Assembly: GCA_036337765.1 (NCBI GenBank)
Contig: JAYZDP010000168.1
Span: 3,247-67,246 of the forward strand
Source: Acidobacteriota bacterium
GTDB taxonomy: Bacteria; Acidobacteriota; Thermoanaerobaculia; Multivoradales; Multivoraceae
Reading direction: 5' to 3'
Length of the DNA stretch: 64,000 nucleotides
The notes under the pieces were generated by a model that saw only the letters and a list, made by a program, of their open reading frames with translations, was not told the origin of the DNA and did not search any database. The translations under genes and the position numbers were made by a program. Below, one piece after another: positions 136 to 50,028 of this stretch; position 1 is the first letter of the stretch, and every line of letters starts with the position of its first letter.

Positions 136-1098
136 TCAGATTCCATGATACTCGCGATACCAACGAACGAAGTTCGGCACCCCGACCGCGATCTGTGTCT
201 TGGGGTCGAAGTCCAAAAGCTCCTTGGCCCTCGAGATGTCGGCACCGGTGCGAACCACGTCGCCCTGCTGCATGGGCAGGAACTCCTTGCGCCCCTCCTT
301 GCCGCACGCCTCCTCGATGGTCGACACGAAGTCCATGAGCTCTTCCGTGCGGCCACAGCCGAGATTGATGATCTCGTAGCTGTAGTTGCGGTCCAGCGCC
401 GCCACCACGCCGGCGACGATGTCGTCGACGTAGGTGAAGTCACGGCTCATCTTGCCGTGGCCGAAGATATTCATCGCGTGGCCACGCAGGACAGCGTCGG
501 TGAACAGAAACAGCGCCATGTCGGGTCGCCCCCAAGGGCCGTAGACCGTGAAGAAGCGCAGGCCCGTGCAGTGCATGCCGAACAGCGTGTTGTACACCGA
601 GGCCTGTAGCTCGTTGGCCTTCTTGGTCATGCCGTACAGCGACGCCTGATGATCGGTGTTGGAGTCCTCGCGCAGAGGAAAGTCCTTGTTGTCGCCATAG
701 ACCGAGCTGGTGGAGGCGTAGATCAGCCCGGCGATCTCCCGTACCTTGCACAACTCGATCACGTTGCCGAACCCGGCAACGTTGTCGCGGTTGAACTCGT
801 CGGGGTGCTCGATCGAATGCCGCACCCCGGCCTGGGCGGCGAGATGACATACGCGCGTGTCCTCGCCGGAACCGAGCTGGTCGAAAGCCGAAGTCAAGAC
901 GTCCATATCAACGATGTCGCCGCGCACGCAGGTGAAGCCGTCGTAGGCCTCGAGCATCTCGTTGCGGCGCGCCTTCAGCACCGGGGCGTAGTACTCGGTG
1001 AACAGATCCAATCCGATCACCTCGTCGCCTCGCTCGAGCAACGCCTTTGCTACGTGGAATCCGATGAAACCCGCTGAGCCGGTTACCAGAACCTTCAT
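136..1098 (-). CDS. NAD-dependent epimerase/dehydratase (SDR family, UDP-glucuronate/UDP-sugar 4-epimerase-like)
   Basis: N-terminal Rossmann motif VLVTGSAGFIGFHV and catalytic YGMTK (YxxxK). Length 320 aa is typical. ATGA overlap with the upstream GlmS-like gene. Confidence 0.85.
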   Translation of the reverse strand: MKVLVTGSAGFIGFHVAKALLERGDEVIGLDLFTEYYAPVLKARRNEMLEAYDGFTCVRGDIVDMDVLTSAFDQLGSGEDTRVCHLAAQAGVRHSIEHPDEFNRDNVAGFGNVIELCKVREIAGLIYASTSSVYGDNKDFPLREDSNTDHQASLYGMTKKANELQASVYNTLFGMHCTGLRFFTVYGPWGRPDMALFLFTDAVLRGHAMNIFGHGKMSRDFTYVDDIVAGVVAALDRNYSYEIINLGCGRTEELMDFVSTIEEACGKEGRKEFLPMQQGDVVRTGADISRAKELLDFDPKTQIAVGVPNFVRWYREYHGI

Positions 1099-4000
1099 GA
1101 CTCGACCACTCCTTCGTCCAAGAGTTTCTCCTCTGCGCTCTCCCAGCGCGAGGCGAGATCGTAGACCGGGTCGGTGAGCAGATCGGCCACCGACATGACA
1201 CCGAGAACATCGTCGCGAAAGACCGGCTCGGTCTCGGTCACTGCGTCGCGCAACGCCGTATACCGGTTGCGGTACGACTCGAGAATCGCGCGCATCACCT
1301 CGCCGGGAACGTGGTCGTGGAATCGCACGTGCAGGAGCAAGAGCCCTGGCACCGCCGTGCCATCGACCTCGGGTATGAGAATCACGGTTCTGCCGTCGCT
1401 GCGGCCCCGAGCCACCGTCAGGATGCGCTCGTTGGCGACCAGATGCTTGGTGCCAAGCAGCTGGGGGTTGTCGTCGGTGCGTGACGACAGCTGCTCGCCG
1501 ATGCCGCCCGTACCGACCACTCCGATCGAGCCGCTCTGACGCGCCTCTCGACCTGCCCCGAGCTCGATGCGATACCGCGTGTGCCCCAGGACCTCGGCCA
1601 CTGACGCGTCGAGGCCGGCTAGTGCACGCAGATCGCGGTAGGTGATCTGCGCCTGTGGCGTTCCAGCCGCAAGCACCGCCTGCACCAGAGGTAGGACGAA
1701 CAGACCCTCGTCGGCACGCGAGATACCTACCGTGACCGTTTTCGCCTGGTGCTTGATGGCGTCGATCGGCCTAGTGAGCTCATCGATTCCGTCGGTGAGA
1801 GCGGTCATCAGCTCCTCGACGACCCTCGCGGGTGTCGCAGCCCCCTCGCCCTGGGCAGCGAACGATTCGAGCGGCAAGAGCCGCCGAGCGTAGGCGAGCA
1901 GCGTGGCCAGCCGGACGGCCGTCGATGCTTCCAGCTGACCGTCGTACTCGCCGGACGCGAGGCCGGTCGAAAACACGTCGGCCGGCTGGGCGATACGCGG
2001 ACCGAGACGCTCCAGTGGGTCCTGCCCGGCCTCGAGCTCGCCGACGAGGGTCTCGATATGGCCACGGACCCGGCGCAGTGGTACAGCGAGGCTGTCGATC
2101 GCCAGCGCCGCCTCGTAGGCGAACAAATGACCGACCATCGTCGCCAGCACGAAGGCCAGGTGCGGATGGCAGGCCGGAACCTCGATCACATCGTCGGCAC
2201 CGTCGAAAACGCCGGAACCCTCGGTGGTGACAACCACCGGGGCTGCCTTGTGGGCGTTGTAGATCGCGACCTCTTTCGAGACGTCAGAGAGCGTCGACTG
2301 CGTCAGCCCGGGAGCGCAGACCAGAATCATCGGCTCTGACGACAGATCGATGTGCTTTTTGTCCTCCGTACCATCGCACGCGATCGCCTTATAGCAGAGC
2401 TCCGAGAGCTTGATCCGGATCTCCTCCGCCGCGATCCGGTTCCAGCCATTGCCGACCACGGCCCAGTAGCGCCGACGTGGACCGTGGCGAGCGGCCACGC
2501 GACCGATCACGTCACGACGGCCGAGAATCTCAATCATGATTCCCGGTAGAGCGAGCAGGCCTTCGACGAGGCCGACATCCTCCGCGTCGAGCCCGCCCTC
2601 CAAAACCTCCTGACGCAGCGCGAGTGCGAGCAGAAAGCCCGCCGCGATTTGCGAGTAGAAGGCCTTGGTAGACGCCACGCTCATCTCCACGTCGCGACCA
2701 TCGGACGTATAAAGCACACCGTCCGCCCGATCTACCAAGTCGCTGCCGCGCCGATTGACGATCGCCACCACGCGTGCGCCGCGCGCACGCACCAGATCGA
2801 CGGTGCGATTCGTGTCGGTGGTCGTACCCGACTGGCTGATGACCAGCACGAGCGAATCCGACATGTCGGACCGCAGGTGGAAGCCCGAGAGCTCGGTTGC
2901 CAGCATCGACTCGATTCGGAAGCGCTCCTCGGGCAGCGCGTCTTCGAGGGCCTTGGCGATCGCTCTCCCAGCGACGGCCGCCGTTCCCTGACCGATCACA
3001 AAGACTTGACGCAGCCGACCGTCGCGCATCCCAGCCACCACGTCCGCGGGCAGGCTAGCGGCACCGAGGTGGATCGCAACACCCGCCTCGCCGCTTCGGA
3101 TCTTGCCGCGCAGGGTCTTCGAGAACGAACGCGGCGCCTGATGGAGCTCCTTGAGCAGAAAGTGCGAAAACTCGCCGCGATCGATGTCGCGAGTGGTGAT
3201 CTCGGCGGCGTGGAGCTCGACCTCATCGACCGGCAGCTCGGTACCGTCGTACGCCAGGCGACGAATCCCCTCGAGGGTGCCGGCCTTCTCGCGATCGAGC
3301 ACCACGATCTGGCCTCGGCTCGCGTTGGGGTTTCTTGGATTGCCCGGCGTCTCGCCATCGACGCGCAGATAATGAGACGCCTGCTCGACCACCCCGTACG
3401 GCTCGCTCGCCACGATGAAGGCGCCGTCGGTGAGCCCGACGTAGAGCGCCTGACCGCTGCCGCGCAGGGCGAGCAGCATGTTGCCGCTCTCGGCGGTACT
3501 CTGGGCGGCGATCGCCACCGATCCTTCGAACGAGGCCACCGTCCGTCGGAAGGCCTCTTCGAGGCTCAGCCCCTCTGCAAGTCGGCGTGACACGAGTACC
3601 GGAATGACCTTGGCGTCGGTGGTGATCTCAGCTGGCAGCTCGATGCCCTCCGCTGCCACCAGCTTCTGATAGTTGTCGACGTCGCCGTTGAGCGCCGCGA
3701 CGACGTACGGGCCTTGCCGATGCGTGCGCACAAGGCCCTCTTCGTTGTTCAGGGGATGCGCGTTGGCCTCGCTGATCAGGCCGACGCTGGCCCAGCGGGT
3801 ATGGCCCAAGACACCATCCAGCGTGCCCGTGCCAAGGCCCGCCCGCAACAGTCGATCGTCGGCCGCCGCGCTACGTAGACGGCGACCGTTGTCACCGAGC
3901 TCGCCAATCTCGGCAGCCGCCTTGTAGACGAGACTCAGATGGCTGTCGTCCGGCCTGCGGACCGACCCCGAGACGAACAGCGGCGTCTTCTCTCGGCCCG

Positions 4001-4583
4001 CAGCCAGGTTCGCCGCTTCGGCGTCGCCGCCCTCGATCAACACGTGAACACCCGCCGAGTCGCGGCCGCGAACCTCGAGGCGGTCCAGCGCCGACATCAC
4101 CGCTTCGAGCGAGGAGAGCCCCTCGACGACGCCAGCCCGCAAGTCACCGGAGGCAAGCTCCCGCACTCGCGCCGCATGGCCCACCCGATCTTCGGACAGC
4201 GCCCATAGCAGGTCCCGGGTACGGATCAGCGCCGCATTCGTCCCCTCGAGACTGGCCGTGGCCATCTCCTTGGGCGCCTCGTCGAGGCCGCGCTCGAGGG
4301 CCACGCAACGCATCGTGGCCTCGTCGAGCTGCGCGCGCAGCTGGCGGCACAGATCCACGTCGGCGACCAGCAGGCGCACACCACCGGCCGAGCGCAGGAC
4401 CCCATCGAGACTTCGGAGGGCGTCGGCACTCCGCTCGAGTGATGCCTCCCATTCGTCAGCCGTACGGCCCGCTTCGGGCAGCGCCGCGACAGCTTCGGCC
4501 AGCGACTGGAGAAGGATTTCAGGAGGAGGCGGCTCAAGCCCGCGGGGAGTACCGAGAACGGCAACGATTCCGCACACGGTCAT
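1095..4583 (-). CDS. Large GlmS-like protein: class-II glutamine amidotransferase domain (with an insertion) plus two to three SIS domains and a C-terminal extension, 1162 aa
   Basis: N-terminal (M)TVCGIVAV matches the MCGIV Ntn-Cys start. GlmS-like motifs RGRDSAGV, GHTRWAS and NGDVDNYQKL are present. SIS motifs LVLVISQSGTTTDT and VVGNGWNRIAAEEI are present. KTVTVGISR resembles the GlmS C-terminus, but about 330 more aa follow. A GTG at 4577 would place Cys at position 2, as GATase II requires. Confidence 0.7.
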   Translation of the reverse strand: MTVCGIVAVLGTPRGLEPPPPEILLQSLAEAVAALPEAGRTADEWEASLERSADALRSLDGVLRSAGGVRLLVADVDLCRQLRAQLDEATMRCVALERGLDEAPKEMATASLEGTNAALIRTRDLLWALSEDRVGHAARVRELASGDLRAGVVEGLSSLEAVMSALDRLEVRGRDSAGVHVLIEGGDAEAANLAAGREKTPLFVSGSVRRPDDSHLSLVYKAAAEIGELGDNGRRLRSAAADDRLLRAGLGTGTLDGVLGHTRWASVGLISEANAHPLNNEEGLVRTHRQGPYVVAALNGDVDNYQKLVAAEGIELPAEITTDAKVIPVLVSRRLAEGLSLEEAFRRTVASFEGSVAIAAQSTAESGNMLLALRGSGQALYVGLTDGAFIVASEPYGVVEQASHYLRVDGETPGNPRNPNASRGQIVVLDREKAGTLEGIRRLAYDGTELPVDEVELHAAEITTRDIDRGEFSHFLLKELHQAPRSFSKTLRGKIRSGEAGVAIHLGAASLPADVVAGMRDGRLRQVFVIGQGTAAVAGRAIAKALEDALPEERFRIESMLATELSGFHLRSDMSDSLVLVISQSGTTTDTNRTVDLVRARGARVVAIVNRRGSDLVDRADGVLYTSDGRDVEMSVASTKAFYSQIAAGFLLALALRQEVLEGGLDAEDVGLVEGLLALPGIMIEILGRRDVIGRVAARHGPRRRYWAVVGNGWNRIAAEEIRIKLSELCYKAIACDGTEDKKHIDLSSEPMILVCAPGLTQSTLSDVSKEVAIYNAHKAAPVVVTTEGSGVFDGADDVIEVPACHPHLAFVLATMVGHLFAYEAALAIDSLAVPLRRVRGHIETLVGELEAGQDPLERLGPRIAQPADVFSTGLASGEYDGQLEASTAVRLATLLAYARRLLPLESFAAQGEGAATPARVVEELMTALTDGIDELTRPIDAIKHQAKTVTVGISRADEGLFVLPLVQAVLAAGTPQAQITYRDLRALAGLDASVAEVLGHTRYRIELGAGREARQSGSIGVVGTGGIGEQLSSRTDDNPQLLGTKHLVANERILTVARGRSDGRTVILIPEVDGTAVPGLLLLHVRFHDHVPGEVMRAILESYRNRYTALRDAVTETEPVFRDDVLGVMSVADLLTDPVYDLASRWESAEEKLLDEGVVES

Positions 4584-4621
4584 AAAACGATAGCACGCGG
4601 CGGCGCGCTAACATCGCGCCC

Positions 4622-5777: not shown

Positions 5778-6593
5778 CTAGAGCCTGCGGTGTGACTCGA
5801 CCGGCATGGAGCGTCGAGTCGAGGCGACGCGGTCGAGATCGATCTCTGCCAGCGCGAGACCTGGGCCTTCGGGTGCCGAGCCGATCACCTGGCCCCAAGG
5901 GTCGATGATGACCGAGTGTCCGTAGCTTTGCCGTAGGCCCTTGTCGTCGTGCTTTCCCCACTGTGCCGCGGCCAGCACATAGCTCTGAGTCTCGATGGCG
6001 CGAGCGCAGAGGAGCGGGTACCAGTGGTCCTTGCCTGTCATCAGGGTGAAGGCCGACGGCACCGTCAGGATCTGTGCTCCTTTCGCGACCAGCTGCGCAT
6101 AGAGCTCGGGGAAGCGCAGGTCGTAGCAGACCGAGAGCCCGACCGCGCCCACCGCGTCGTCGACCACTACCAGCTCCTTGCCCGGCTGGATCGTCGCGGA
6201 CTCCTTGAAGCACACTTCCTTCGACACGTCGACGTCGAAGAGGTGGATCTTGCGGTATACGCCGCGGATCTCGCCGTCAGGGCCGAAGTAGACGCTGGTG
6301 TTGAGACAGCGGGTCTCCTCGTCGCTGCGCTCGTTGAAGGAGCCCAGCACCAGGTGGATGCCGTGCTTGGCGGCGAGCTCGGCGAAGCAGGTGCACGCCT
6401 TGCCGTCGAGACCCTCCGCCAAGCGCACCTTTTCCTTGTGCGGGCCGAGGTAGTTGGTGTTCTCGGGTGTCGACACGAGGGTCGCGCCGTACCCTGCGGC
6501 ACGCTCGATCAGCTCGCTCGACAGCGAGAGATTCGCATCTTCATCGGAGCCCGACTGGAGCTGGACGACGGCGGCTAGGAACTTGTCAGACAT
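5778..6593 (-). CDS. carbon-nitrogen hydrolase (nitrilase superfamily)
   Basis: Starts MSDKFLAAVVQLQ, typical of C-N hydrolases. Catalytic-triad context E..K..C (GLSVCYDLRFPE). The listed ORF start at 7013 runs into the neighbouring gene; the internal ATG at 6593 gives a 271-aa protein. Confidence 0.8.
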   Translation of the reverse strand: MSDKFLAAVVQLQSGSDEDANLSLSSELIERAAGYGATLVSTPENTNYLGPHKEKVRLAEGLDGKACTCFAELAAKHGIHLVLGSFNERSDEETRCLNTSVYFGPDGEIRGVYRKIHLFDVDVSKEVCFKESATIQPGKELVVVDDAVGAVGLSVCYDLRFPELYAQLVAKGAQILTVPSAFTLMTGKDHWYPLLCARAIETQSYVLAAAQWGKHDDKGLRQSYGHSVIIDPWGQVIGSAPEGPGLALAEIDLDRVASTRRSMPVESHRRL

Positions 6594-7585
6594 TTCTTCG
6601 CGAATCGTGCCAGGCGCCAGTAGTAGCGGAAGCCGCCGTGACGGTAGACATCGTTGTGGCCGGCCCTCGGGATCTCGAACCAGTCCTTCGGCTCGGCGGC
6701 CGCCTCGTACAGGCGCCGGCCCAGGCGCATCGGAATGGTCGGATCGTCCGAGCCGTGGATGAAGAGCTTGGGCACATCGATCGACGCCACCTTGTCGAGG
6801 CTGCGAAACTGGTTGCGGGCCATCAGGTGCAGCGGGGTGCGCGGGTACAGCACGCGGACCATGTCGCGAATGTGGGTGAAGCTCGACTGCACCACGAGCC
6901 CCGCGATCTGCCGGTGCAGTGCGGTCTCGATAGCGACCGCGCCGCCGAGCGAGTGGCCGAACAAGAGCACTTTCGACGGCTCGACCCCCAACGGGCCGGT
7001 GAGATGGTCCCATGCGGCGCGGGCGTCGCGATAGACACCGTCTTCCGACGGCTCACCTTCGCTACGTCCGTAGCCGCGATAGTCGAAGGCCAAGACACTC
7101 ACCTTCATGCGACGCAGGTCTCCGAGCGCCCCGAGTCGATGGGAAATGTTGCCATTGTTGCCGTGGCAGTACAGCACTGCCCCGCGGGCCTTCGGGTGCG
7201 GAATCCACCAGGCGTGAAGCCGAGTGCCATCGTCAGCCTCGAACCACACGTCCTCAGCCGGCAGACCGTAGGCTCGGGGCTGCCACATCCCGTCGGGATA
7301 GCGCACTGGCGCGAAGACCTGCCCGCGCTGAACGCGGCCGAGCAGCCACGTGCCTACGCCTCCGACCGCGACCGCAGCCGACGGCAGGGCCAGGCGCGCA
7401 AGCCAGCCCTGGAGGCTTGAAGTAGGCTTATCTGCGGAGCCCAGCACGGTTCTCATCTCTCCTAACTGTAGAGTTGCGAGGCCTATTCCGATAGGTACGT
7501 GGCCGCGCAGTGGGGCCCTTCCCAGACCGTCACGGCTGCGACTTCCACGGCCGGGAAACGCAGCGAGAGCTCTTCGCAGAACCAA
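6575..7585 (-). CDS. alpha/beta hydrolase (BEM46/YheT-like serine hydrolase) with N-terminal membrane anchor
   Basis: GHSLGGAVA nucleophile elbow (GxSxG). N-terminal hydrophobic segment. Start is uncertain: 7585, or the internal ATG at 7456 preceded by AGGAGA. Confidence 0.7.
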   Translation of the reverse strand: MVLRRALAAFPGRGSRSRDGLGRAPLRGHVPIGIGLATLQLGEMRTVLGSADKPTSSLQGWLARLALPSAAVAVGGVGTWLLGRVQRGQVFAPVRYPDGMWQPRAYGLPAEDVWFEADDGTRLHAWWIPHPKARGAVLYCHGNNGNISHRLGALGDLRRMKVSVLAFDYRGYGRSEGEPSEDGVYRDARAAWDHLTGPLGVEPSKVLLFGHSLGGAVAIETALHRQIAGLVVQSSFTHIRDMVRVLYPRTPLHLMARNQFRSLDKVASIDVPKLFIHGSDDPTIPMRLGRRLYEAAAEPKDWFEIPRAGHNDVYRHGGFRYYWRLARFAKKCLTSS

Positions 7586-11105: not shown

Positions 11106-12515
11106 TCAGCCCCTTCCGGCGCTCGCCAACCAGGCGACCAGGCCAGCCAGGGCGGCCTGAGGATCGCCCGACTCGCCCTTTAGACGTAGCTCGGTGTCGA
11201 GCACCTTGGCAGGCAGACCCGCCAGGCTGCCACCCGGGAAGCGGCACGCCGCGAGGTAGGCCTTGTGCAGCCGAAACGGATGAACCTTACCGACGGCCGA
11301 GATCCCGGTCTCGGGCAAGGGCTCCATGAGCCGACTCGCGTATTGAGACTTGAAGCGATTGAAGTTCCGCTCTCCCGAAGGCACACCGACCGCCTCCATG
11401 GTTCCGGCGACCGCGGCCAGATCGCCACAGAAGCTCGCCAGCCGACCGAAGAAAGACAGACGGGCCGCCATCGAGTCTTCGGCCCCGTCCACGAGACGAT
11501 CGAGCCGGGTCAGCGCCTCACCGCCACGGCCCTCGCCGATCGCGTCGAGAAGCTTCCACACGTCCTCCTCGCCACGATCCTCGACCACGTCCCTGACCAG
11601 ATCCTGCTCGATCCGCCCCGACTCGGCGAGCGAGGCGAGCTTTCGGTACTCGGCAGCGAAGCGTGATGTCGAGTCGGCATCGATTCCATCGCTCTGCCCG
11701 CGCCCCGAGCCATGGCGCAGAGTGCGCCGACCCAGCTCCTCGAGCGCTGGCCGAACGATGGACCTGCCCGTCTCGCGCTCGAGCTCCGCGGCAAGGGCGT
11801 CGAGGCCCTGCCAGCGGCCCCGGCGGTCGGCCTCGACCCGTCCCAGCTCCAGCAGCGTCTCATCGGCCCGCAGGGCTTGTACCAGCGGATGATCCTCGGC
11901 CACCGCCACCTCGCACATCACCAGATGGTGACCGTCGGGCAGACCGTCGGTAGCCACGGCAGCGAGGTCCGCGGCATCGCCCTCCGCCCAACCTTCGAGG
12001 CCGGCAGCGTTGGCGGCTTCGAGCAGATCGGCGAGCTGGGAGCGAAGGTCCTGAGCCGCCGCCTTGGCGCGCTTCTTGGCCCGCGCCCTACCTCCCGGCG
12101 GCGCACCACCGGCGAAAACCCACTCCGGCAGCTCGGAAACCACGTTCTCGGGGCTCTCGCCATATGGCTCCAAGCCGAACAGCCGGCAAACCTGTAGCAG
12201 CCGACCCGCAGCAACTCGCCCCTTGTCGCTCAGCTTGTCGTCTGGGCTCACCGGCAGTGCTTCGGCCGCCTGGTCGATCAGGTGCGCAGCACCACGCCGA
12301 TCGGCGAGCACACCACTGGCGATCACCACGACAATCTTGGCGCTCGAGAAAAGCGAGTAGGTACGCAGATCGCCGAGCCTCGGCGCGAGCGATTCCGGAT
12401 GGCGGTAGGACTCGATCTCGGCGACAGTCGCCTCGGCCAACGCATCGGCGATGCGCAGTCCCGCCGCCTCAGCGAGCAGGATCTCGCCTGTGACCAGGTA
12501 GAGCGGGCCTTTCAC
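11106..12515 (-). CDS. holA: DNA polymerase III delta subunit (HolA)-like, with a long acidic/Ala-rich insertion
   Basis: LYLVTGE (HolA lYllyGeE) and a C-terminal HPFRLHKAYLAACRF..LRLKG-like region. The listed ORF start at 12674 would overlap the DksA-like gene by 100 nt; the GTG at 12515 is preceded by GGGAGGGG. Function call is tentative. Confidence 0.45.
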   Translation of the reverse strand: MKGPLYLVTGEILLAEAAGLRIADALAEATVAEIESYRHPESLAPRLGDLRTYSLFSSAKIVVVIASGVLADRRGAAHLIDQAAEALPVSPDDKLSDKGRVAAGRLLQVCRLFGLEPYGESPENVVSELPEWVFAGGAPPGGRARAKKRAKAAAQDLRSQLADLLEAANAAGLEGWAEGDAADLAAVATDGLPDGHHLVMCEVAVAEDHPLVQALRADETLLELGRVEADRRGRWQGLDALAAELERETGRSIVRPALEELGRRTLRHGSGRGQSDGIDADSTSRFAAEYRKLASLAESGRIEQDLVRDVVEDRGEEDVWKLLDAIGEGRGGEALTRLDRLVDGAEDSMAARLSFFGRLASFCGDLAAVAGTMEAVGVPSGERNFNRFKSQYASRLMEPLPETGISAVGKVHPFRLHKAYLAACRFPGGSLAGLPAKVLDTELRLKGESGDPQAALAGLVAWLASAGRG

Positions 12516-12574
12516 CCCCTCCCGGATGCGGGCGACAAGCGCGCCATCCGGGGCCCCCGCCCCACCAGACGTGG

Positions 12575-13183
12575 TCAATCCAGCAGACCCTTCTCCTCGA
12601 GTTCCTGACAGTCGATGCAGTAACGCGCCCAGGGAATGGCAACCAGGCGCTCCTCGCCGATCGGTTCCGTACACGAGGTGCAGCTGCCAAACGCACCCTC
12701 GTCGATGCGGCCGAGCGCGGCCTCGATCTGCTCTAGAACCTTTCGCTCACCGGTCGACAGCGCCAACGCCAGGTCACGATCGGTATCGAAGTTGGCACGA
12801 TCGATGTCGTCCTCGCCATCGTGATTGATGCCCACGCCCACGCCTACACCCACGTCGTGCCGGTAGAGGTCGAGGATCTCCTCGCGCTGCTCCGCCAGGC
12901 GCTCCGCGAAGCTCGACAGACGGCGACTACCGTTGGTCGGGCGAGTCTTTCGTCTGGCCTTTTTCGCCGGTCGCTTCGGCGATCTGGCCACGACCCTCTT
13001 GGCTGCCTTCTTCTTCGGCGTCTTCTTGGCGACAGTCTTCGCCTTCTTGGTGGCGGGCCTGGCCTTCGCCTTCGCCTTCGAGCCCGCGGCCTTCGTAGAT
13101 CGAACCTTGCCCGAGGTCGACTTCTTCACGGCCTTCTTCGGGGAAGCCACCTTCTTCGCGGTCGTCCTTTTCTTCTTTGACAT
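12575..13183 (-). CDS. DksA/TraR-family C4 zinc-finger protein with an N-terminal histone H1-like lysine/alanine-rich domain
   Basis: C-terminal zinc finger CTSC..x17..CIDC with a coiled-coil segment before it. The first roughly 90 aa are KKxAxK repeats. The internal ATG at 13183 (MSKKKR) is taken as the start. Confidence 0.7.
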   Translation of the reverse strand: MSKKKRTTAKKVASPKKAVKKSTSGKVRSTKAAGSKAKAKARPATKKAKTVAKKTPKKKAAKRVVARSPKRPAKKARRKTRPTNGSRRLSSFAERLAEQREEILDLYRHDVGVGVGVGINHDGEDDIDRANFDTDRDLALALSTGERKVLEQIEAALGRIDEGAFGSCTSCTEPIGEERLVAIPWARYCIDCQELEEKGLLD

Positions 13184-13661: not shown

Positions 13662-13882
13662 TTGAAGGCCTCACTTACGAGTATTTGGAGGCATCTCGGG
13701 GCGGCAAGCCGCCACGAGATGGGGGAGTATAAGCGGAAAGGCCGAGCCGGGTCACGTCCGCGGCTCGAAGGCTTCCTTCATAGTCGCTCTGCTATGCTGC
13801 GCGCTCCTTCGAGACCCCCCGGAGCCCACACCTTGCGCGCGCAAACCCGCCTTCGGTGGACTCTCCACGGAGCCGTCACGAC

Positions 13883-16800
13883 ATGAGCGAGAACAGGTTC
13901 CCGGTCGTCGAGTCCGGCTACCCGTTTCCAGAGATCGAGCTTGAGACGCTCGAGTACTGGCGCGACGAGGACGTTTTTCGCCGCTCGGTATCGAAGTACT
14001 CCGGAGGGCCGGAGTTCGTGTTCTACGACGGTCCGCCGACCGCCAACAATGCACCTCACGTAGGCCACGTCGTCACCCGCGTGGTCAAAGACCTGATCCC
14101 ACGCTACCGCACCATGCGGGGCTACCACGTGGTTCGCAAGGCGGGCTGGGACACCCACGGCTTGCCGGTGGAGATCGAGGTCGAGAAGGCCCTCGGCTTC
14201 AGCAGCAAGAAGCAGATCGAGGAGTATGGGGTCGCCGAATTCAACCGCCGATGCCTGGAGAGCGTAGACCGCTACGAGAAGCAGTGGCGCGAAATGGTCG
14301 AACGGGTCGGTCACTGGATCGACCTCGAGGATCCCTATTTCACCTACACCAACGAGTACATCGAGTCGGTGTGGTGGGCGCTCGCCGAGCTAGCGAACAG
14401 GCGCCGGCTCGAGAAGGGCTTCAAGATCCAGCACTACTGCGGCCGTTGCGGCACGCCGCTGTCGAGCCACGAGGTCGCCCAGAACTACAAGGACACCGAA
14501 GATCCGTCGGTCTGGGTGCTCTTCCCTCTCCGGGACGGCCAGGTCGCCACCGACGCCGACGGCGACGAGCACGCCCTCGGGGCGCAACATCGCATCGTCG
14601 CCTGGACGACGACTCCGTGGACCCTGCTCTCTCATAGCGGCCTGGCGCTCAACGCCGCCCTCGACTATCGACTGGTCGAGCACCCCCGCGTGCCCGGGAG
14701 CTTTCTGATCTTCGCCGATGAGCTCGAGCCACCGGTGCCGCTCCTCGCTTCTGGCGAGGATGGCAAAACAGCCCGGCTGGATCTGCGCGACTGCGACGTC
14801 GTCGCACGTTTCCACGGTCACGATCTCGAGGGCCTGCGCTACGACCGGCCCTTCCGCGTCGCCCCACAAAGCGATGACGCCGACGCCGGCAACGACAACG
14901 CCTCCGACCGCGACGGCTGGATTGTGGTCGCGGCCGACTACGTCACTGCGACCGAGGGAACGGGCATCGTTCACACGGCGCCGCTGTTCGGCGAAGACGA
15001 CTACCAAACTGGGCGCAAGTACGGCCTGCCACAGATCCAGGCGGTCGACGGCGCCGGCAAGATCCGCGAGGGCGCCGGGCTCGAGGGGCTGGCGGGAACC
15101 TGGTTCAAGGACGCCGACCGAGAGGTGATCCGCGACCTTCGCCAGCGCGGATTGCTACTGCACGACGAACGCTACAAGCACAGCTACGCCTTCTGCTGGC
15201 GCTGCGACGAGCCCCTGCTGTTCTACGCCACTGAAAGCTGGTTCGTGCGCACCACCCTCGACAAAGACAAGCTGATCCAGCACAACCGCACGATCGGCTG
15301 GCGGCCGGAGCACGTCGGCGAAGGCCGCTTCGGCGACTGGCTCGAAAACCTGGTCGACTGGGCGCTGTCGCGCAATCGCTACTGGGGTACACCGCTGCCG
15401 GTCTGGGTGTGCGACGGGTGCGAGGCGACCCAGGCCATCGGCTCCTACGCAGCTCTGCACGAGGCAGCAGGGATCGAGCTCCCCTCAGATCCGTACGATC
15501 CGAAGGTCTTCGATCCGCACCGTCCGTACATCGACGACTTCACCTGGCCCTGTGCAGATTGCGACGGTACAAAGCGGCGGGTCGAGGCAGTCATCGACGC
15601 GTGGTTCGACTCAGGATCGATGCCCTTCGCCCAGCACCACTACCCGTTCGAGAACAAAGAGCTCTTCGAGCGTCACTTTCCCGCCGACTTCATCTCCGAA
15701 GCCGTCGACCAGACGCGCGGCTGGTTCTTCACCCTGCACGCTCTGGGAAGCCTACTCTTCGACGACGTGGCCTTCCGCAACTGCATCGTGCTGGGCCACA
15801 TCAGCGACGAGTCGGGGCGCAAGATGTCGAAGCGCATCGGCAACGTCGTCGATCCGATGGAAGTGATCGGCGAGACCGGCGCCGACGCGCTGCGCTGGTA
15901 CTTCTGCGTCAACAACCCTGAGCAGAACGCACGCTTCTCCGCCAGGCTGGTGCGCGAAGCGGCGCAGGGCTTCCTCATCCCGCTGTGGAACGCGCTGTCG
16001 TTCTTCTCGATTTACGCCAACCTCGACGGCTGGAGGCCCGGTGACGACGCGGGCGCCTTCGTGCAGCGGCCGGCGCTCGACCGCTGGGTGTTGCTGCGCC
16101 TCGATGGTGTCGTCGCCGAGGCGACGCGCGCCCTCGACGGCTACGACACTGCAAGCGCAGCCAAGGCGATCGAGGCCTTCATCGAAGACCTCACGAACTG
16201 GTACATCCGCCGCAGTAGAGACCGCTTCTGGGCCCCGGTGCTAGAAGGGGTCACGACCGGCGGGGGCCCCGACAAGTCGAGCGCCTACGCCGCCCTATAC
16301 GAGGTGCTGACCACCCTGGCGCGCGTCCTCGCGCCGTTCACGCCCTTCGTCGCGGACCGCATCCATCGAAACCTCGAGCGAACGATCGGTGCCACCGGGG
16401 AGCCCCGTGTGCACCTGGAATCGTGGCCCGAGCCGCCGCGTCGGGCCGACGACGAGCTGGAGCGGGACATGAAGACAGTGCAGCGAGCGGTGCGCTTCGG
16501 GCACGCAGCCCGCAACGCCCATTCCGTCCGCACTCGCCAGCCGCTGCGCAGCGTCACCATTGTCGCCGCCGACGACGAGCTCGGAGCCAAACTCGCTCCT
16601 CACCTGGAGCTGGTCCGCGAGGAGCTCAACGTGCGCGAGGTGGACTTCGCCCAGAATCGCTCCGACTACGTTTACCACGAGATCCTCCCGGTCTTTCCGA
16701 GATGCGGTCCTCGCTTCGGCAAGCGCATGCCCCTGGTGCAGCGAGCGCTGGCGGATGCTGACGGAGATTCGCTCGCCGATGCACTCGACGTCAGAGGCAG

Positions 16801-17197
16801 TGTCGAGATCGAGATCGAGGGGTGCGTCGAGTCGTTGAGCGCAGAGGAGCTCGAGGTGAGGCTGGTCGAGAAGGAGGGCATGGCGATCCAGGGCGATCGC
16901 GATCTGCTCGTTGCGCTCGATGTCGAGCTCGACGCCGGGCTTCTCACCGAGGGCCTAGCGCGCGAGGTCGTGCACCGCATCCAGCGCGCCCGCAAAGAGA
17001 TGGACCTCGACTACGCAGATCGCATCGAGGTGCAATACAGGGCCGCCGAGCCGGTGGTCGAAGCTCTTGCAGCCCACCGCGAGTGGGTCATGGGTGAGAC
17101 CCTTGCGACCGCGCTCACCGTGGCTCCAGAAGGCGCGGAGCTCGACGCCGCACCGGTCGAGGAGCACGATTTCGCCCTTCAGCTGACCAAGAGGTAG
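13883..17197 (+). CDS. ileS: isoleucyl-tRNA synthetase (type 2, about 1100 aa)
   Basis: HIGH motif as PHVGHV, KMSKS motif as KMSKRIGN, and a CP1 editing domain. GGAG lies 11 nt upstream of the ATG at 13883 (ORF opens at 13856). Confidence 0.95.
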   Translation: MSENRFPVVESGYPFPEIELETLEYWRDEDVFRRSVSKYSGGPEFVFYDGPPTANNAPHVGHVVTRVVKDLIPRYRTMRGYHVVRKAGWDTHGLPVEIEVEKALGFSSKKQIEEYGVAEFNRRCLESVDRYEKQWREMVERVGHWIDLEDPYFTYTNEYIESVWWALAELANRRRLEKGFKIQHYCGRCGTPLSSHEVAQNYKDTEDPSVWVLFPLRDGQVATDADGDEHALGAQHRIVAWTTTPWTLLSHSGLALNAALDYRLVEHPRVPGSFLIFADELEPPVPLLASGEDGKTARLDLRDCDVVARFHGHDLEGLRYDRPFRVAPQSDDADAGNDNASDRDGWIVVAADYVTATEGTGIVHTAPLFGEDDYQTGRKYGLPQIQAVDGAGKIREGAGLEGLAGTWFKDADREVIRDLRQRGLLLHDERYKHSYAFCWRCDEPLLFYATESWFVRTTLDKDKLIQHNRTIGWRPEHVGEGRFGDWLENLVDWALSRNRYWGTPLPVWVCDGCEATQAIGSYAALHEAAGIELPSDPYDPKVFDPHRPYIDDFTWPCADCDGTKRRVEAVIDAWFDSGSMPFAQHHYPFENKELFERHFPADFISEAVDQTRGWFFTLHALGSLLFDDVAFRNCIVLGHISDESGRKMSKRIGNVVDPMEVIGETGADALRWYFCVNNPEQNARFSARLVREAAQGFLIPLWNALSFFSIYANLDGWRPGDDAGAFVQRPALDRWVLLRLDGVVAEATRALDGYDTASAAKAIEAFIEDLTNWYIRRSRDRFWAPVLEGVTTGGGPDKSSAYAALYEVLTTLARVLAPFTPFVADRIHRNLERTIGATGEPRVHLESWPEPPRRADDELERDMKTVQRAVRFGHAARNAHSVRTRQPLRSVTIVAADDELGAKLAPHLELVREELNVREVDFAQNRSDYVYHEILPVFPRCGPRFGKRMPLVQRALADADGDSLADALDVRGSVEIEIEGCVESLSAEELEVRLVEKEGMAIQGDRDLLVALDVELDAGLLTEGLAREVVHRIQRARKEMDLDYADRIEVQYRAAEPVVEALAAHREWVMGETLATALTVAPEGAELDAAPVEEHDFALQLTKR

Positions 17198-17203
17198 GTA
17201 GGG

Positions 17204-18556
17204 ATGGCAGGAATCTTCAAGGCCTACGACGTCCGCGGCCTCTACCCCGAAGAGCTCGACGAAACACGAGCGCGCGCGATCGGTCGATCGTTCCCACAGG
17301 TGCTCGACCCCTCGGATCTCGAGCGGACCCGGACGGTCGTTGTCGGCCGCGACATGAGGCCCCACGGAGTGCCCCTCTGTGAGGCGCTGATCGAGGGGCT
17401 ACGCGAGGGTGGCGTCGACGTCCTCGACATCGGCCTCGCGACAACACCGATGAACTACTTCGCCGTCGGCCGCCTGGGCGCCGCGGGCGGAGTTCAGGTC
17501 ACCGCCAGTCACAACCCACCGAGATACAACGGCTGCAAGTTCAGCCTCGGCGACGCACGGCCAGTCTCTGGCGACGGAGGTATTCCCGAGATCGAGCGCC
17601 TAGCGGCAACCGGCGGTCCGCGGGCAGAGTCGCTGGGCGTGCTGTCGCAGGGCGAGATCATGTCGACTTACCGCGAGCACCTGCTCTCGTTTCTCGACGA
17701 TGTCCCTGGCCACCACCGCCTCAGGGTAGCCGTCGACGCAGCCAACGGTATGGGATGCCTCTACCAACCGCTGCTCGAAGCTGCGGGCATCGATCTGGAG
17801 CTGTTGTACTTCGAGCTCGATGGCTCATTCCCGAATCACGAGCCGAACCCGCTGAATCTCGACAATCTGCGCGACCTCGGTGAGCTGGTGCGCTCGAGTG
17901 GCGCCGATCTCGGCGTGGCGTTCGACGGCGACGCTGACCGTGCGGGTTTCGTCGACGAGCGCGGCGAACCGGTGGGCAGCGACCTGTCGACGGCGCTGAT
18001 CGGGGGGGAGCTCCTCGCCCGGTACCCCGGAACGGCGGTGGTCTACGATCTTCGATCGTCGCGAGCCGTGGCCGAGTACATCCGGGAGATGGGCGGCGAG
18101 CCGATCCGCGAGCGGGTCGGCCATTCGTTCATCAAGGCCACCCTACGAAAGCACGACGGCGCCTTCGGCGGCGAGCTCGCCGGACACTACTACTTCCGCG
18201 ACAACTACACTGCCGACTGCTCGCTCATGGCTGTCTTCGAAATGATCAATCTCCTTCGCCGACGTGGCCAGCCGCTATCGGAGATCGTCGCGCCGCTGGC
18301 GCGCTACGCCAAGACCCCGGAGATCAACTTCGAGGTCGAGGACAAGGAAGCCATGATGGCCGAGCTCGCCCGGGTTTTCGCGGACGGGGAGATCGACACC
18401 CTCGACGGGGTCACCGTGCAGTACCACGACTGGTGGTTCAACGTCCGCCCGTCGAACACCGAGCCACTCCTGCGGCTGGTTGCAGAGGCGCGTGACGAGG
18501 CACTGCTGGCCGAAAAGGAAGCGGCCCTGCTGGAGATTCTCGGCGATCCGGTATAG
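17204..18556 (+). CDS. phosphomannomutase/phosphoglucomutase (alpha-D-phosphohexomutase)
   Basis: Active-site TASHNPPRYNGCKF, metal-binding DGDADR, sugar-binding loop GGELAGHYYF. Confidence 0.9.
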   Translation: MAGIFKAYDVRGLYPEELDETRARAIGRSFPQVLDPSDLERTRTVVVGRDMRPHGVPLCEALIEGLREGGVDVLDIGLATTPMNYFAVGRLGAAGGVQVTASHNPPRYNGCKFSLGDARPVSGDGGIPEIERLAATGGPRAESLGVLSQGEIMSTYREHLLSFLDDVPGHHRLRVAVDAANGMGCLYQPLLEAAGIDLELLYFELDGSFPNHEPNPLNLDNLRDLGELVRSSGADLGVAFDGDADRAGFVDERGEPVGSDLSTALIGGELLARYPGTAVVYDLRSSRAVAEYIREMGGEPIRERVGHSFIKATLRKHDGAFGGELAGHYYFRDNYTADCSLMAVFEMINLLRRRGQPLSEIVAPLARYAKTPEINFEVEDKEAMMAELARVFADGEIDTLDGVTVQYHDWWFNVRPSNTEPLLRLVAEARDEALLAEKEAALLEILGDPV

Positions 18557-48261: not shown

Positions 48262-50028
48262 TCAGGCCTCCTGTGGCTGGCTCTGCGCCGTGAAGTCCTC
48301 ATCGGAGCCCGGAGCGCTGTACTCATAGGCGGGCCGGAAGACGGTCGGGATCTTCGGAAAGTTGCCATGGCCGATCGGTGGCGACGGCGCGTCCGTCCAT
48401 TCCAGCGTCGTTGCTCTCCAGGGGTTGCCCCCGACTTTCTCGCCAGTCTTCAAGCTCATGAAGAAATTGACGATGAAAAAGATCTGCACCACTGCGAGTC
48501 CGAAGGCCGACCAGGTCATCATCTTGTTCCACACCATGACGTCCTTGGCGAACTCGTAGGTCAGCCCACCGTCGTACAGGCGTCGCGACAATCCGGCCAT
48601 GCCCTGGATGAGCATCGGGAAGAAGATGCCGTTGATGAACAGGAGGGACGGCCAGAAGTGCAGCTTGCCGAGCAGTTCCGACATCTTGCGACCCGTCACC
48701 TTCGGGTACCAATAGTAGATCCCGGCAAAGATGGCGAAGATCGTGCCCGGAGCCACAACGTAGTGGAAGTGGCCGATAACGTAGTACGTGTCGTGCAGCG
48801 GGATGTCCGACGCCGTCAGCCCGAGGGGCAGGCCGGTCAGACCGCCGATCGCGAACATGGGGAGAAACGCCAGCGCGAAGAGCATCGGCGTGTTGAAGCG
48901 AATCGAGCCGCCCCACAGCGACAGCAGCAGACACGTCAGGATGATCACCGAGGGAATGGAGATGATCATCGTCGTAGTCTGGAAGAAGGCGCTGATCACT
49001 GTGCCCATGCCGGTCATGAACATGTGATGGGCCCAGACGATGAATGACATGAAGCCGAGAAAAACCACCGAGTACACCAGTGACTTGTAGCCCCAGATGG
49101 GCTTGCGGGTGTTGTTGGCGATGATCTCTCCGACCATTCCCATGGCGGGCAGCACGAGAACGTAGACCTCGGGATGGGCCAGAAACCAGAACAAGTGCTG
49201 CCAGAGCAACGGGCTGCCGCCCCCGCTCCTGAAATCCTCCATCTCACCGCTGATCACGAGGCCGTCGGGCATGAAGAAGCTCGTGTCGACGAGGCGATCG
49301 AAGAGCTGCAGAACTCCCGCCGCCTCCAGCGGTGGGAAGGCCAGCAGAAGTAGGAACGAGGTCACGAGCTGTGCCCAAACGAAAAAGGGAAGCCGCATCC
49401 AGGTAAGCCCCGGCGCGCGCATCTGAATGATGGTGACCAGGAAATTTACGGCGCCCAGAAGTGAAGACGTGATGAGCAGGATCATTCCGAACAGCCAGAC
49501 CGTCTGCCCGTCCTCGAGGACCGATAGCGGCGGATAGGACGTCCAACCCGACCGAGCCGCGCCGCCCGGCAGAAAGAAGCTCGACGCCATCAAAAGCCCG
49601 CCAGGCAGGAAGCACCAGTAACTCGCCATGTTCAGCTTCGGGAACGCCATGTCGGGCGCGCCGATCTGAAGCGGAACCACGTAGTTGCCGAAGGCGCCGA
49701 CGAGCAGCGGAACGACAGCCATGAACACCATGATGGTGCCGTGCATCGCGCCGAGCTGGTTGTAGAACTCCGGCAGCATGATGCCGCCGGGTGCGTTGTC
49801 GGCCCCGAAGAGTCCGCCGATCGCTGGGATCGGCTTGCCCGGATACGCCAGCTGCCACCGCATGAGCAGCATCAAGCAGAAGCCGAGGAGCATGAACACC
49901 AGCGCGGTCAACCCGTACTGGATGCCGATCATCTTGTGATCCTGGGAGAAGACGTACTTCCGCCAGAAGCTCTCCTCGTGGTGCTCCTCGTGAGCGTCGG
50001 CGTGGGAGTCGGTGGTTGCAGGTTCCAT
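48262..50028 (-). CDS. coxA: cytochrome c oxidase subunit I
   Basis: 12+ TM helices, heme/CuB ligands (GHPEVY, HHMF, HFHYV). Confidence 0.95.

Follow-up and report, generated by a model that had tools for sequence, protein, structure and literature searches.

Which reaction does a protein catalyse that looks like GlmS, the synthase of glucosamine 6-phosphate (GlcN-6-P), and yet is nearly twice as long as the E. coli enzyme and 24% identical to it? The question is raised by a gene on contig JAYZDP010000168.1 of an Acidobacteriota bacterium, within a stretch of 64,000 nucleotides (positions 3,247 to 67,246) that was analysed as a whole and is called the window here. GlmS catalyses the committed step towards UDP-N-acetylglucosamine (UDP-GlcNAc), and hence towards peptidoglycan, lipopolysaccharide (LPS) and many glycans; it is an antibiotic target and the textbook case of ammonia channelling. 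The C-tail of the canonical enzyme, which bears Lys603, is a free C-terminus that closes over the sugar site. We consider it likely that the window gene encodes a functional GlcN-6-P synthase of a distinct long-form subfamily, most likely supplying UDP-GlcNAc for peptidoglycan and LPS. This is the best explanation because the catalytic machinery is conserved, the fold is that of GlmS, the gene has a position adjacent to glmM and the protein is conserved across phyla. The activity of the long form we infer from its sequence, and its synteny indicates that it is probably a housekeeping enzyme and the sole GlmS. The long form is a distinct, so far uncharacterised subfamily, and what is new in it is the architecture.

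The open reading frame (ORF) comprises 1162 codons on the minus strand (4583 to 1095) with no internal stop or change of frame, and its high G+C content at third codon positions (0.79) is typical for genes of this window with 65% GC. An earlier reading of the same DNA, made from the letters alone (the sequence-only reading), had described a 1162-aa GlmS-like ORF at these positions, and the minus-strand translation bears this out; it contains all the motifs quoted there, namely RGRDSAGV, GHTRWAS, NGDVDNYQKL, LVLVISQSGTTTDT, VVGNGWNRIAAEEI, AKTVTVGISR and SIGVVGTGGIGEQ. The protein is 100% identical to the database entry MEE2777695.1 (P0001 in our search), “SIS domain-containing protein [Acidobacteriota bacterium]”. 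The 5' end of the ORF reads ATG-ACC-GTG-TGC (M-T-V-C), so that a GTG at 4577-4575 stands immediately 5' of the Cys codon TGC. This GTG is likely the true start because the consensus N-terminus of a 47-member alignment of the long form is MCGI and because an ATG abuts the Cys codon in homologues (those of loci L023, L044, L046, L063 and L074). A start at the GTG would likely leave the Cys as residue 1 after removal of the Met, as an amidotransferase with an N-terminal nucleophile (Ntn) requires; indeed Cys is at position 1 in 44 of the 47 aligned members, and the remaining three are N-terminally truncated. The family consensus thus supports the Ntn-Cys start, with a GTG at 4577 giving Met-Cys, that the sequence-only reading had proposed.

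The anatomy of the protein was derived from Pfam, from residue mapping after E. coli GlmS (MG1655) had been added to the 47-member alignment, from phmmer against the sequences of the Protein Data Bank (PDB), in which residues 259-828 align with E. coli GlmS residues 69-590, and from an AlphaFold2 (AF2) model built on the family alignment (pLDDT 85.7, pTM 0.80). Pfam places GATase_6 at 256-394 and SIS at 525-654. The features, all on the minus strand, are as follows.

1095-4583, minus: whole long-form GlmS ORF, 1162 aa as listed, coordinates with the stop codon; 100% identical to MEE2777695.1
4575-4577, minus: probable start codon GTG (Met-Cys), from the sequence and the MCGI consensus
4548-4574, minus: glutaminase strand beta-1 with the Cys nucleophile (aa 4-12), aligned with E. 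coli MCGIVGAIAQ; AF2 strand 6-11
4137-4547, minus: helical insert I (aa 13-149), five helices in the AF2 model, without counterpart in E. coli GlmS
3174-4136, minus: class-II (Ntn) glutaminase domain (aa 150-470), from Pfam GATase_6 and invariant residues
2604-3161, minus: SIS subdomain 1 (aa 475-660), Pfam SIS at 525-654, with the phosphosugar loop SQSGTTTDT and VASTKAF
2091-2585, minus: SIS subdomain 2 (aa 667-831), with K725/E728 for E. coli K485/E488 and H744 for H504
1773-2090, minus: helical insert II (aa 832-937), from the AF2 model, between SIS subdomain 2 and the C-tail
1719-1772, minus: internal GlmS C-tail (aa 938-955, RPIDAIKHQAKTVTVGIS), with K948 for the E. coli Schiff-base Lys603
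1098-1718, minus: C-terminal alpha/beta domain (aa 956-1162), five strands in the AF2 model of the domain alone
136-1098, minus: downstream epimerase/dehydratase of the short-chain dehydrogenase/reductase (SDR) type, 320 aa, Pfam Epimerase 1.8e-48

Compared with E. coli GlmS there are thus three large family-specific additions, insert I of about 137 aa, insert II of about 106 aa and a C-terminal domain of 207 aa, and two smaller family-specific expansions lie within the glutaminase domain at about 186-250 and 409-470. Pfam finds nothing significant for any of the three large additions. Insert I is placed between strand 1 and helix 1 of the glutaminase domain; an insert after the first strand had been noticed from the sequence, at about 110 aa, and its presence stands while its size has to be corrected upwards (residues 13-149). 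Its helices in the AF2 model are 21-33, 42-63, 66-74, 76-102 and 109-144, and no other part is so weakly conserved (identity to the window protein 33%), with D101, E113, D124, W127, D132 and R133 invariant. Insert II, which stands in place of just about 8 residues in E. coli GlmS, forms helices at 834-849, 856-876, 886-899, 906-910 and 918-941 in the model, the last of which runs slightly into the C-tail. With identities to the window protein of 47% for insert II and 54% for the C-terminal domain, both are well conserved. The C-terminal extension of roughly 330 aa in the sequence-only reading has the right size (832-1162), although it is not one unit, being composed of insert II, the GlmS C-tail and the 207-aa domain; and the multiple SIS domains, which are present, are simply the two SIS subdomains usual for any GlmS.

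The catalytic machinery is conserved in the long form. All 19 catalytic and substrate-binding residues mapped from E. coli GlmS are kept in every one of the 47 members, save for Cys1 in the three truncated sequences. On the glutaminase side these are Cys1, Arg26, Asp29, Arg73, Trp74, His86, Asn98, Gly99 and Asp123, of which the eight after Cys1 correspond to R172, D175, R263, W264, H276, N299, G300 and D323; the glutamine-site and oxyanion residues R263, N299, G300 and D323 and the channel gate W264 are invariant (47/47). On the isomerase side they are Thr302, Ser347, Gln348, Ser349, Thr352, Ser401, Lys485, Glu488, His504 and Lys603, and the equivalents in the SIS subdomains, S583-Q-S-G-T-T588, S638, K725, E728 and H744, are likewise invariant in the family. 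The C-tail (segment RPIDAIKHQAKTVTVG) is the most conserved segment of all, with 16 of its 18 columns invariant, among them the Lys603 equivalent K948 and the motif AK(S/T)VTV, in which K603, S604T, V605, T606 and V607 could be mapped. Unlike the free C-terminus of E. coli GlmS, this tail is internal: E608 is replaced by G953, and a further 209 residues follow.

The modelled structure agrees with this assignment. Foldseek with the full model ranks GFAT-1 and GlmS first, with E about 1e-25, and gives a TM-score of about 0.86 against isolated isomerase-domain structures. The only internal stretches of low confidence in the AF2 model are 265-273 (Q-loop), 734-747 (His-loop) and 945-956 (C-tail), the loops that are mobile in the active sites of GlmS. 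The long form shares with the bacterial enzyme (EC 2.6.1.16; E. coli PDB 1JXA, 2J6H and 4AMV; TIGR01135) the N-terminal Cys, the class-II glutaminase, the two SIS subdomains and the C-tail with the Schiff-base Lys, and in Acidimicrobiia also the genomic tie to glmM. Its best Foldseek match is the eukaryotic GFAT-1/Gfa1 (PDB 6R4E and related, E 1.5e-25), likewise a GlmS whose glutaminase domain carries insertions specific to its lineage. GFAT, however, is 20% identical; at about 680 aa in total it has only short insertions, which sit at other positions, it has neither such helical inserts nor the C-terminal domain, and its C-tail is terminal. The double-SIS isomerase fold is also found in the GlcN-6-P deaminases NagB-II/AgaS and in the deglycase FrlB, and the NagB-II model matches residues 516-730 weakly; these enzymes lack a glutaminase domain, whereas that of the long form is present and intact, Cys1 nucleophile included.

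The architecture is widespread and is kept in related taxa: homologues of similar length occur across Acidobacteriota, Planctomycetota and Acidimicrobiia. A search of the protein database returned over 120 relatives that are full-length (1105-1196 aa) and 54-63% identical, from Acidobacteriota, Thermoanaerobaculia, Planctomycetota, Acidimicrobiia and other Actinomycetota, and the mean column identity of the 47-sequence alignment is 60% across phyla. In a scan of GTDB genomes, with one genome per species, at least 598 species have a confirmed match to the long form, mainly Acidimicrobiia and Planctomycetota and some Acidobacteriota. Among the carriers are Aquihabitans sp. G128, with a complete genome (NZ_CP077604.1), the complete-chromosome assemblies of the Acidimicrobiia strain TE-7 (OZ239143.1) and of a Planctomycetota bacterium (OZ245838.1), and Ferrithrix thermotolerans. 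A frameshift or fusion, or an annotation artefact, was considered as the origin of the great length and is ruled out by the same single ORF in hundreds of independent assemblies, complete genomes included; this disposes of the idea, raised by the sequence-only reading against itself, that two genes had been joined by a frameshift. Database naming is inconsistent, with “SIS domain-containing protein” from PGAP, a COG-style “glucosamine 6-phosphate synthetase...” and the JGI KO name for GlmS. A literature search found no account, for Planctomycetes or Acidimicrobiia, of a GlmS that is long or atypical, which is no proof of novelty.

The decisive genomic context is that of other phyla. Of the 85 homologous loci, 61 have the long form immediately after glmM, in the order rplM-rpsI-glmM-[long gene]-acpS-yjeF-alr, and these 61 are essentially all the loci of Acidimicrobiia/Actinomycetota with enough upstream flank. 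The order matches the known actinobacterial glmS neighbourhood. On the H37Rv map rplM/rpsI (Rv3443c/Rv3442c) lie upstream and alr (Rv3423c) lies downstream. The glmS and glmM genes of M. tuberculosis are Rv3436c and Rv3441c, five locus numbers apart (PMC9366312). With the window protein as query, tblastn found no second GlmS-like copy within 10 kb in the 85 loci or in the 64-kb window.

The Planctomycetota have another context. In about 14 of their loci the long form is immediately preceded on the same strand by two genes, one for a DUF3299-like protein of about 135 aa and one for a protein of about 384 aa with at most faint HEAT repeats, and a small Fer4_13 ferredoxin often stands ahead of this pair. 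A DegT-type aminotransferase lies downstream of the long form in 7 of the roughly 14 loci. The upstream pair is located as follows.

L003, 8137-9979, same strand as glmS: Planctomycetota upstream pair
L004, 8070-9994, same strand as glmS: Planctomycetota upstream pair
L005, 8339-9920, same strand as glmS: Planctomycetota upstream pair
about 11 more loci, same strand as glmS: Planctomycetota upstream pair

In Planctopirus limnophila, transposon sequencing found glmS (Plim_1342) to be essential and the NAD-dependent epimerase/dehydratase gene that follows it (Plim_1343) to be non-essential (PMC10632474). Its glmS-epimerase order is the same pairing of glmS and SDR gene as in the window. The same work describes an apparent loss of glmS/M/U in most Planctomycetia (PMC10632474).

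What, then, could the added parts be for? The C-terminal domain, modelled alone by AF2 (pLDDT 94.4), has strands at 40-52, 64-72, 101-104, 111-119 and 122-133 of the domain, with the helices between strands 2 and 3, and so fits a five-stranded antiparallel sheet in the 2-helices-3 order of PAS/GAF-like domains. Its best Foldseek match is the 180-kDa glutamate dehydrogenase L-GDH180 of M. smegmatis (7JSR; E 4e-3, probability 0.99); almost all the other matches are PAS, Cache, GAF or LOV sensor domains (E 0.02-0.2), and the Foldseek TM-scores are 0.2-0.46. L-GDH180 carries a PAS-type domain that has been proposed as a metabolic sensor and, like the long form, is an enzyme of metabolism to which putative sensor modules have been added (PMC8175468). 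These matches weakly suggest a PAS/GAF-like fold for the model. Unlike PAS, GAF and Cache sensors, the domain has no similarity to them in sequence or by hidden Markov models (HMMs), and unlike a minimal PAS core it has extra N- and C-terminal helices; a profile search of PDB sequences gave no match at E <= 10. The only hint of small-molecule binding is a set of invariant charged or aromatic residues, Y982, Y1004, R1035, K1046, D1063, R1065, E1072, R1098, Y1104 and R1107.

The domain appears to be exclusive to the long-form GlmS family. A profile search of 1.84 billion representative proteins returned 596 clusters, and the full-length proteins among the 150 matches listed carry the domain at or near the C-terminus of sequences of about 1070-1280 aa, which is also the length range of the long form. 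Matches of 186-196 aa were considered as stand-alone versions and rejected, since they look like fragments: the one followed further, P0256, is cut off by the end of its 2.4-kb contig, and the proteins related to it are pieces that carry a GlmS annotation. In one Planctomycetota metagenome-assembled genome (L020) part of the C-terminal end is duplicated: 38 aa encoded at 14900-15013 share 55% identity with residues 1110-1147. An apparent match over 5 kb in that genome, considered as an intein or insertion, comes down to this duplicated fragment about 1.5 kb downstream of the intact gene.

A mechanism can be proposed in which the chemistry is old and the control is new. Glutamine would be hydrolysed by Cys1, as in canonical GlmS, and the ammonia would travel through a channel gated by the equivalent of Trp74; the equivalent of Lys603 (K948) would form a Schiff base with fructose 6-phosphate (Fru-6-P), and the equivalents of Glu488 and His504 would carry out isomerisation and ring opening. 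The catalytic C-tail is here an internal loop, with insert II and the C-terminal domain as the clamp on either side of it, and the two helical inserts together with that domain may constitute a built-in regulatory and/or oligomerisation device. A ligand on the PAS/GAF-like domain could then govern how the C-tail closes over the sugar site and the ammonia channel, an intrinsic control that would replace the RNA-based or partner-protein-based control of GlmS in other bacteria. A precedent for feedback control at the level of the enzyme is GFAT, of which there are UDP-GlcNAc-bound structures (6R4G and 6SVP, by their titles). It is possible, though we regard it as doubtful, that the long form has displaced canonical GlmS across the whole class Acidimicrobiia and in some lineages of Planctomycetota and Acidobacteriota, with the C-terminal domain and the inserts as a metabolite sensor that gates the internal C-tail and the ammonia channel.

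If this were true, it would add a third, enzyme-intrinsic mode of GlmS feedback control to the glmS ribozyme and to the GlmY/GlmZ small RNAs and partner proteins such as GlmR. In the whole 64 kb no Rfam family, whether tRNA, riboswitch or other RNA, scores as high as its gathering threshold, and at the same threshold neither the glmS ribozyme nor another Rfam RNA is found in six representative homologous loci. The long form could show how bacteria without a glmS ribozyme near the gene regulate amino-sugar flux, and an internal C-tail combined with a family-specific putative sensor domain would be a new architecture for studying the control of channel closure. There is also a practical side, as metabolic reconstructions from metagenome-assembled genomes of Acidimicrobiia, Planctomycetota and Acidobacteriota can wrongly call glmS missing when the long form falls below the cutoffs of the GlmS HMMs. 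Should it be a long but otherwise ordinary GlmS, the result would be a useful correction of annotation and no discovery.

The neighbours of the gene in the window bear on its function as well. The start of the SDR gene overlaps the stop of the long glmS by 4 nt (1095-1098), which suggests translational coupling. Its product is a sugar-nucleotide epimerase/dehydratase, with GalE as the best NCBIfam match (141 bits, below the cutoff of 262), and the overlapping pair recurs, with an SDR of 81% identity, in L001, which of the relatives on long contigs is the closest; the SDR is the only neighbour in the window that is conserved, and only there. The sequence-only reading had identified an SDR epimerase, a class I/II aminotransferase and a C-N hydrolase around the gene, and these identities are confirmed. 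The aminotransferase is a divergent class I/II enzyme that belongs with the amino-acid type and not with the DegT-type enzymes acting on sugars, and for the C-N hydrolase the resemblance is to deaminated-glutathione amidase (200 bits, below cutoff); neither is a neighbour of the long glmS in L001 or any other homologous locus. The rest of the window is housekeeping, with fpg, holA-like, rlmH, ileS, a mutase gene of the phosphomannomutase/phosphoglucomutase (PMM/PGM) family, tdk, ppk and moaDE, as well as thiF-like, argH/D/B/J, xseA, cytochrome oxidase and lptD genes. The 64-kb surroundings are thus no island of glycan biosynthesis. The presence of LptD implies that the organism has an outer membrane with LPS and so needs UDP-GlcNAc.

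Several observations count against an ordinary GlmS. The two GlmS models TIGR01135 and NF001484 are the best NCBIfam models for the protein, but its scores come to roughly half of what they require (209 bits against a cutoff of 418.05 for the former, 227.4 against 381 for the latter), which is why PGAP calls it no more than a SIS domain-containing protein; identity to solved GlmS and GFAT structures is only 20-24%. Besides E608G, three differences from E. coli GlmS are fixed in the family, S303A, E351T and K487S, and all three are at or beside the sugar-phosphate site. In the window itself the gene does not adjoin glmM, the nearest gene of the PGM/PMM family being 12.6 kb away with a product that scores under the GlmM cutoffs. 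As for a sensor, Foldseek with the C-terminal domain gave no match at E <= 1e-3, and the PAS/GAF-like assignment comes from matches with E between 4e-3 and 0.2, without HMM support. Low family scores and low identity allow for a changed substrate, and together with the three substitutions they leave some room for an altered specificity. The sequence-only reading had gone further and proposed a paralogue that aminates another sugar phosphate and, with the SDR, the aminotransferase dependent on pyridoxal phosphate and the C-N hydrolase, makes an unusual amino sugar. The SDR overlap would suit such a pathway, but of the three partners only the SDR is conserved as a neighbour, the other two are of the amino-acid type and deaminated-glutathione-amidase-like, and the surrounding genes form no glycan cluster. 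Apart from the three substituted positions, the residues that contact Fru-6-P or glucose 6-phosphate in E. coli are kept, and the adjacency to glmM in 61 loci argues for GlcN-6-P as the product. We therefore regard the unusual amino sugar as very unlikely; the evidence points toward ordinary GlmS function, the outcome that the sequence-only reading had itself set against its proposal.

Somewhat more credible, but still improbable in our judgement, is that the long form is a second, differently regulated GlcN-6-P synthase beside a canonical GlmS of about 610 aa, used under particular conditions such as a demand for exopolysaccharide or LPS sugars, with the coupled SDR. The search of this genome for a second copy covered the 64-kb window, the gene is coupled to a sugar-nucleotide epimerase both there and in L001, and its context varies among phyla, all of which an isozyme would accommodate. 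Yet it is the long form that occupies the place next to glmM in the 61 loci of Acidimicrobiia/Actinomycetota, with no other GlmS-like gene within 10 kb, and the very high column identity across phyla fits an essential single-copy function. Nor is the pairing with an epimerase the mark of a special isozyme, as the essential glmS of P. limnophila, taken as canonical, also precedes one. The unusual length and the extra domains without a known family might also bring to mind a catalytically dead sensor or scaffold, or two genes fused by artefact. Against this, every mapped catalytic residue is conserved and the undisturbed single ORF recurs throughout the family, so that this explanation, which we find barely conceivable, is essentially refuted by family spread and residue conservation. 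A functional long-form GlcN-6-P synthase accounts for the observations best.

Some minor observations concern the flanks of the gene. Between its ATG (4583, minus) and the GTG of the divergent class I/II aminotransferase gene (4622, plus) there are 38 nt (4584-4621), a gap that leaves hardly any space for two promoters and leaders, so that one of the starts may be mis-set or the transcripts may be leaderless or overlapping. The C-N hydrolase ORF (5778-7013, minus) overlaps an alpha/beta-hydrolase ORF on the same strand (6575-7585, minus) by 439 nt, and its listed start is probably over-extended, as its domain begins only at residue 146. The C-N hydrolase ORF and the aminotransferase gene converge, with their ends 2 nt apart, and may form a pairing of the transaminase/omega-amidase type. 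The only candidate GlmM in the window is a 450-aa mutase of the PMM/PGM family, encoded 6 nt after ileS (1113 aa), the two genes together occupying 13856-18556 on the plus strand; it scores 448 bits with the phosphomannomutase/phosphoglucomutase model (cutoff 618) and 361 bits with that of archaeal-type GlmM (cutoff 439). L001 likewise has a PGM/PMM gene, of 449 aa, at a distance of about 10 kb from its long glmS.

Two further genes of the window are unusual for their length. The 522-aa holA-like ORF at 11106-12674 on the minus strand matches the delta subunit of DNA polymerase III only over residues 302-401 (61 bits, cutoff 80) and is much longer than the usual holA, with no assignment for its first 300 aa. 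At 51841-54771, also on the minus strand, an unusually large fused cytochrome c of 976 aa combines Cytochrom_C, FixO-like, cytochrome c7-like and MtrC/MtrF-like modules; its gene lies upstream of that for a COX1 haem-copper oxidase subunit (48262-50028).

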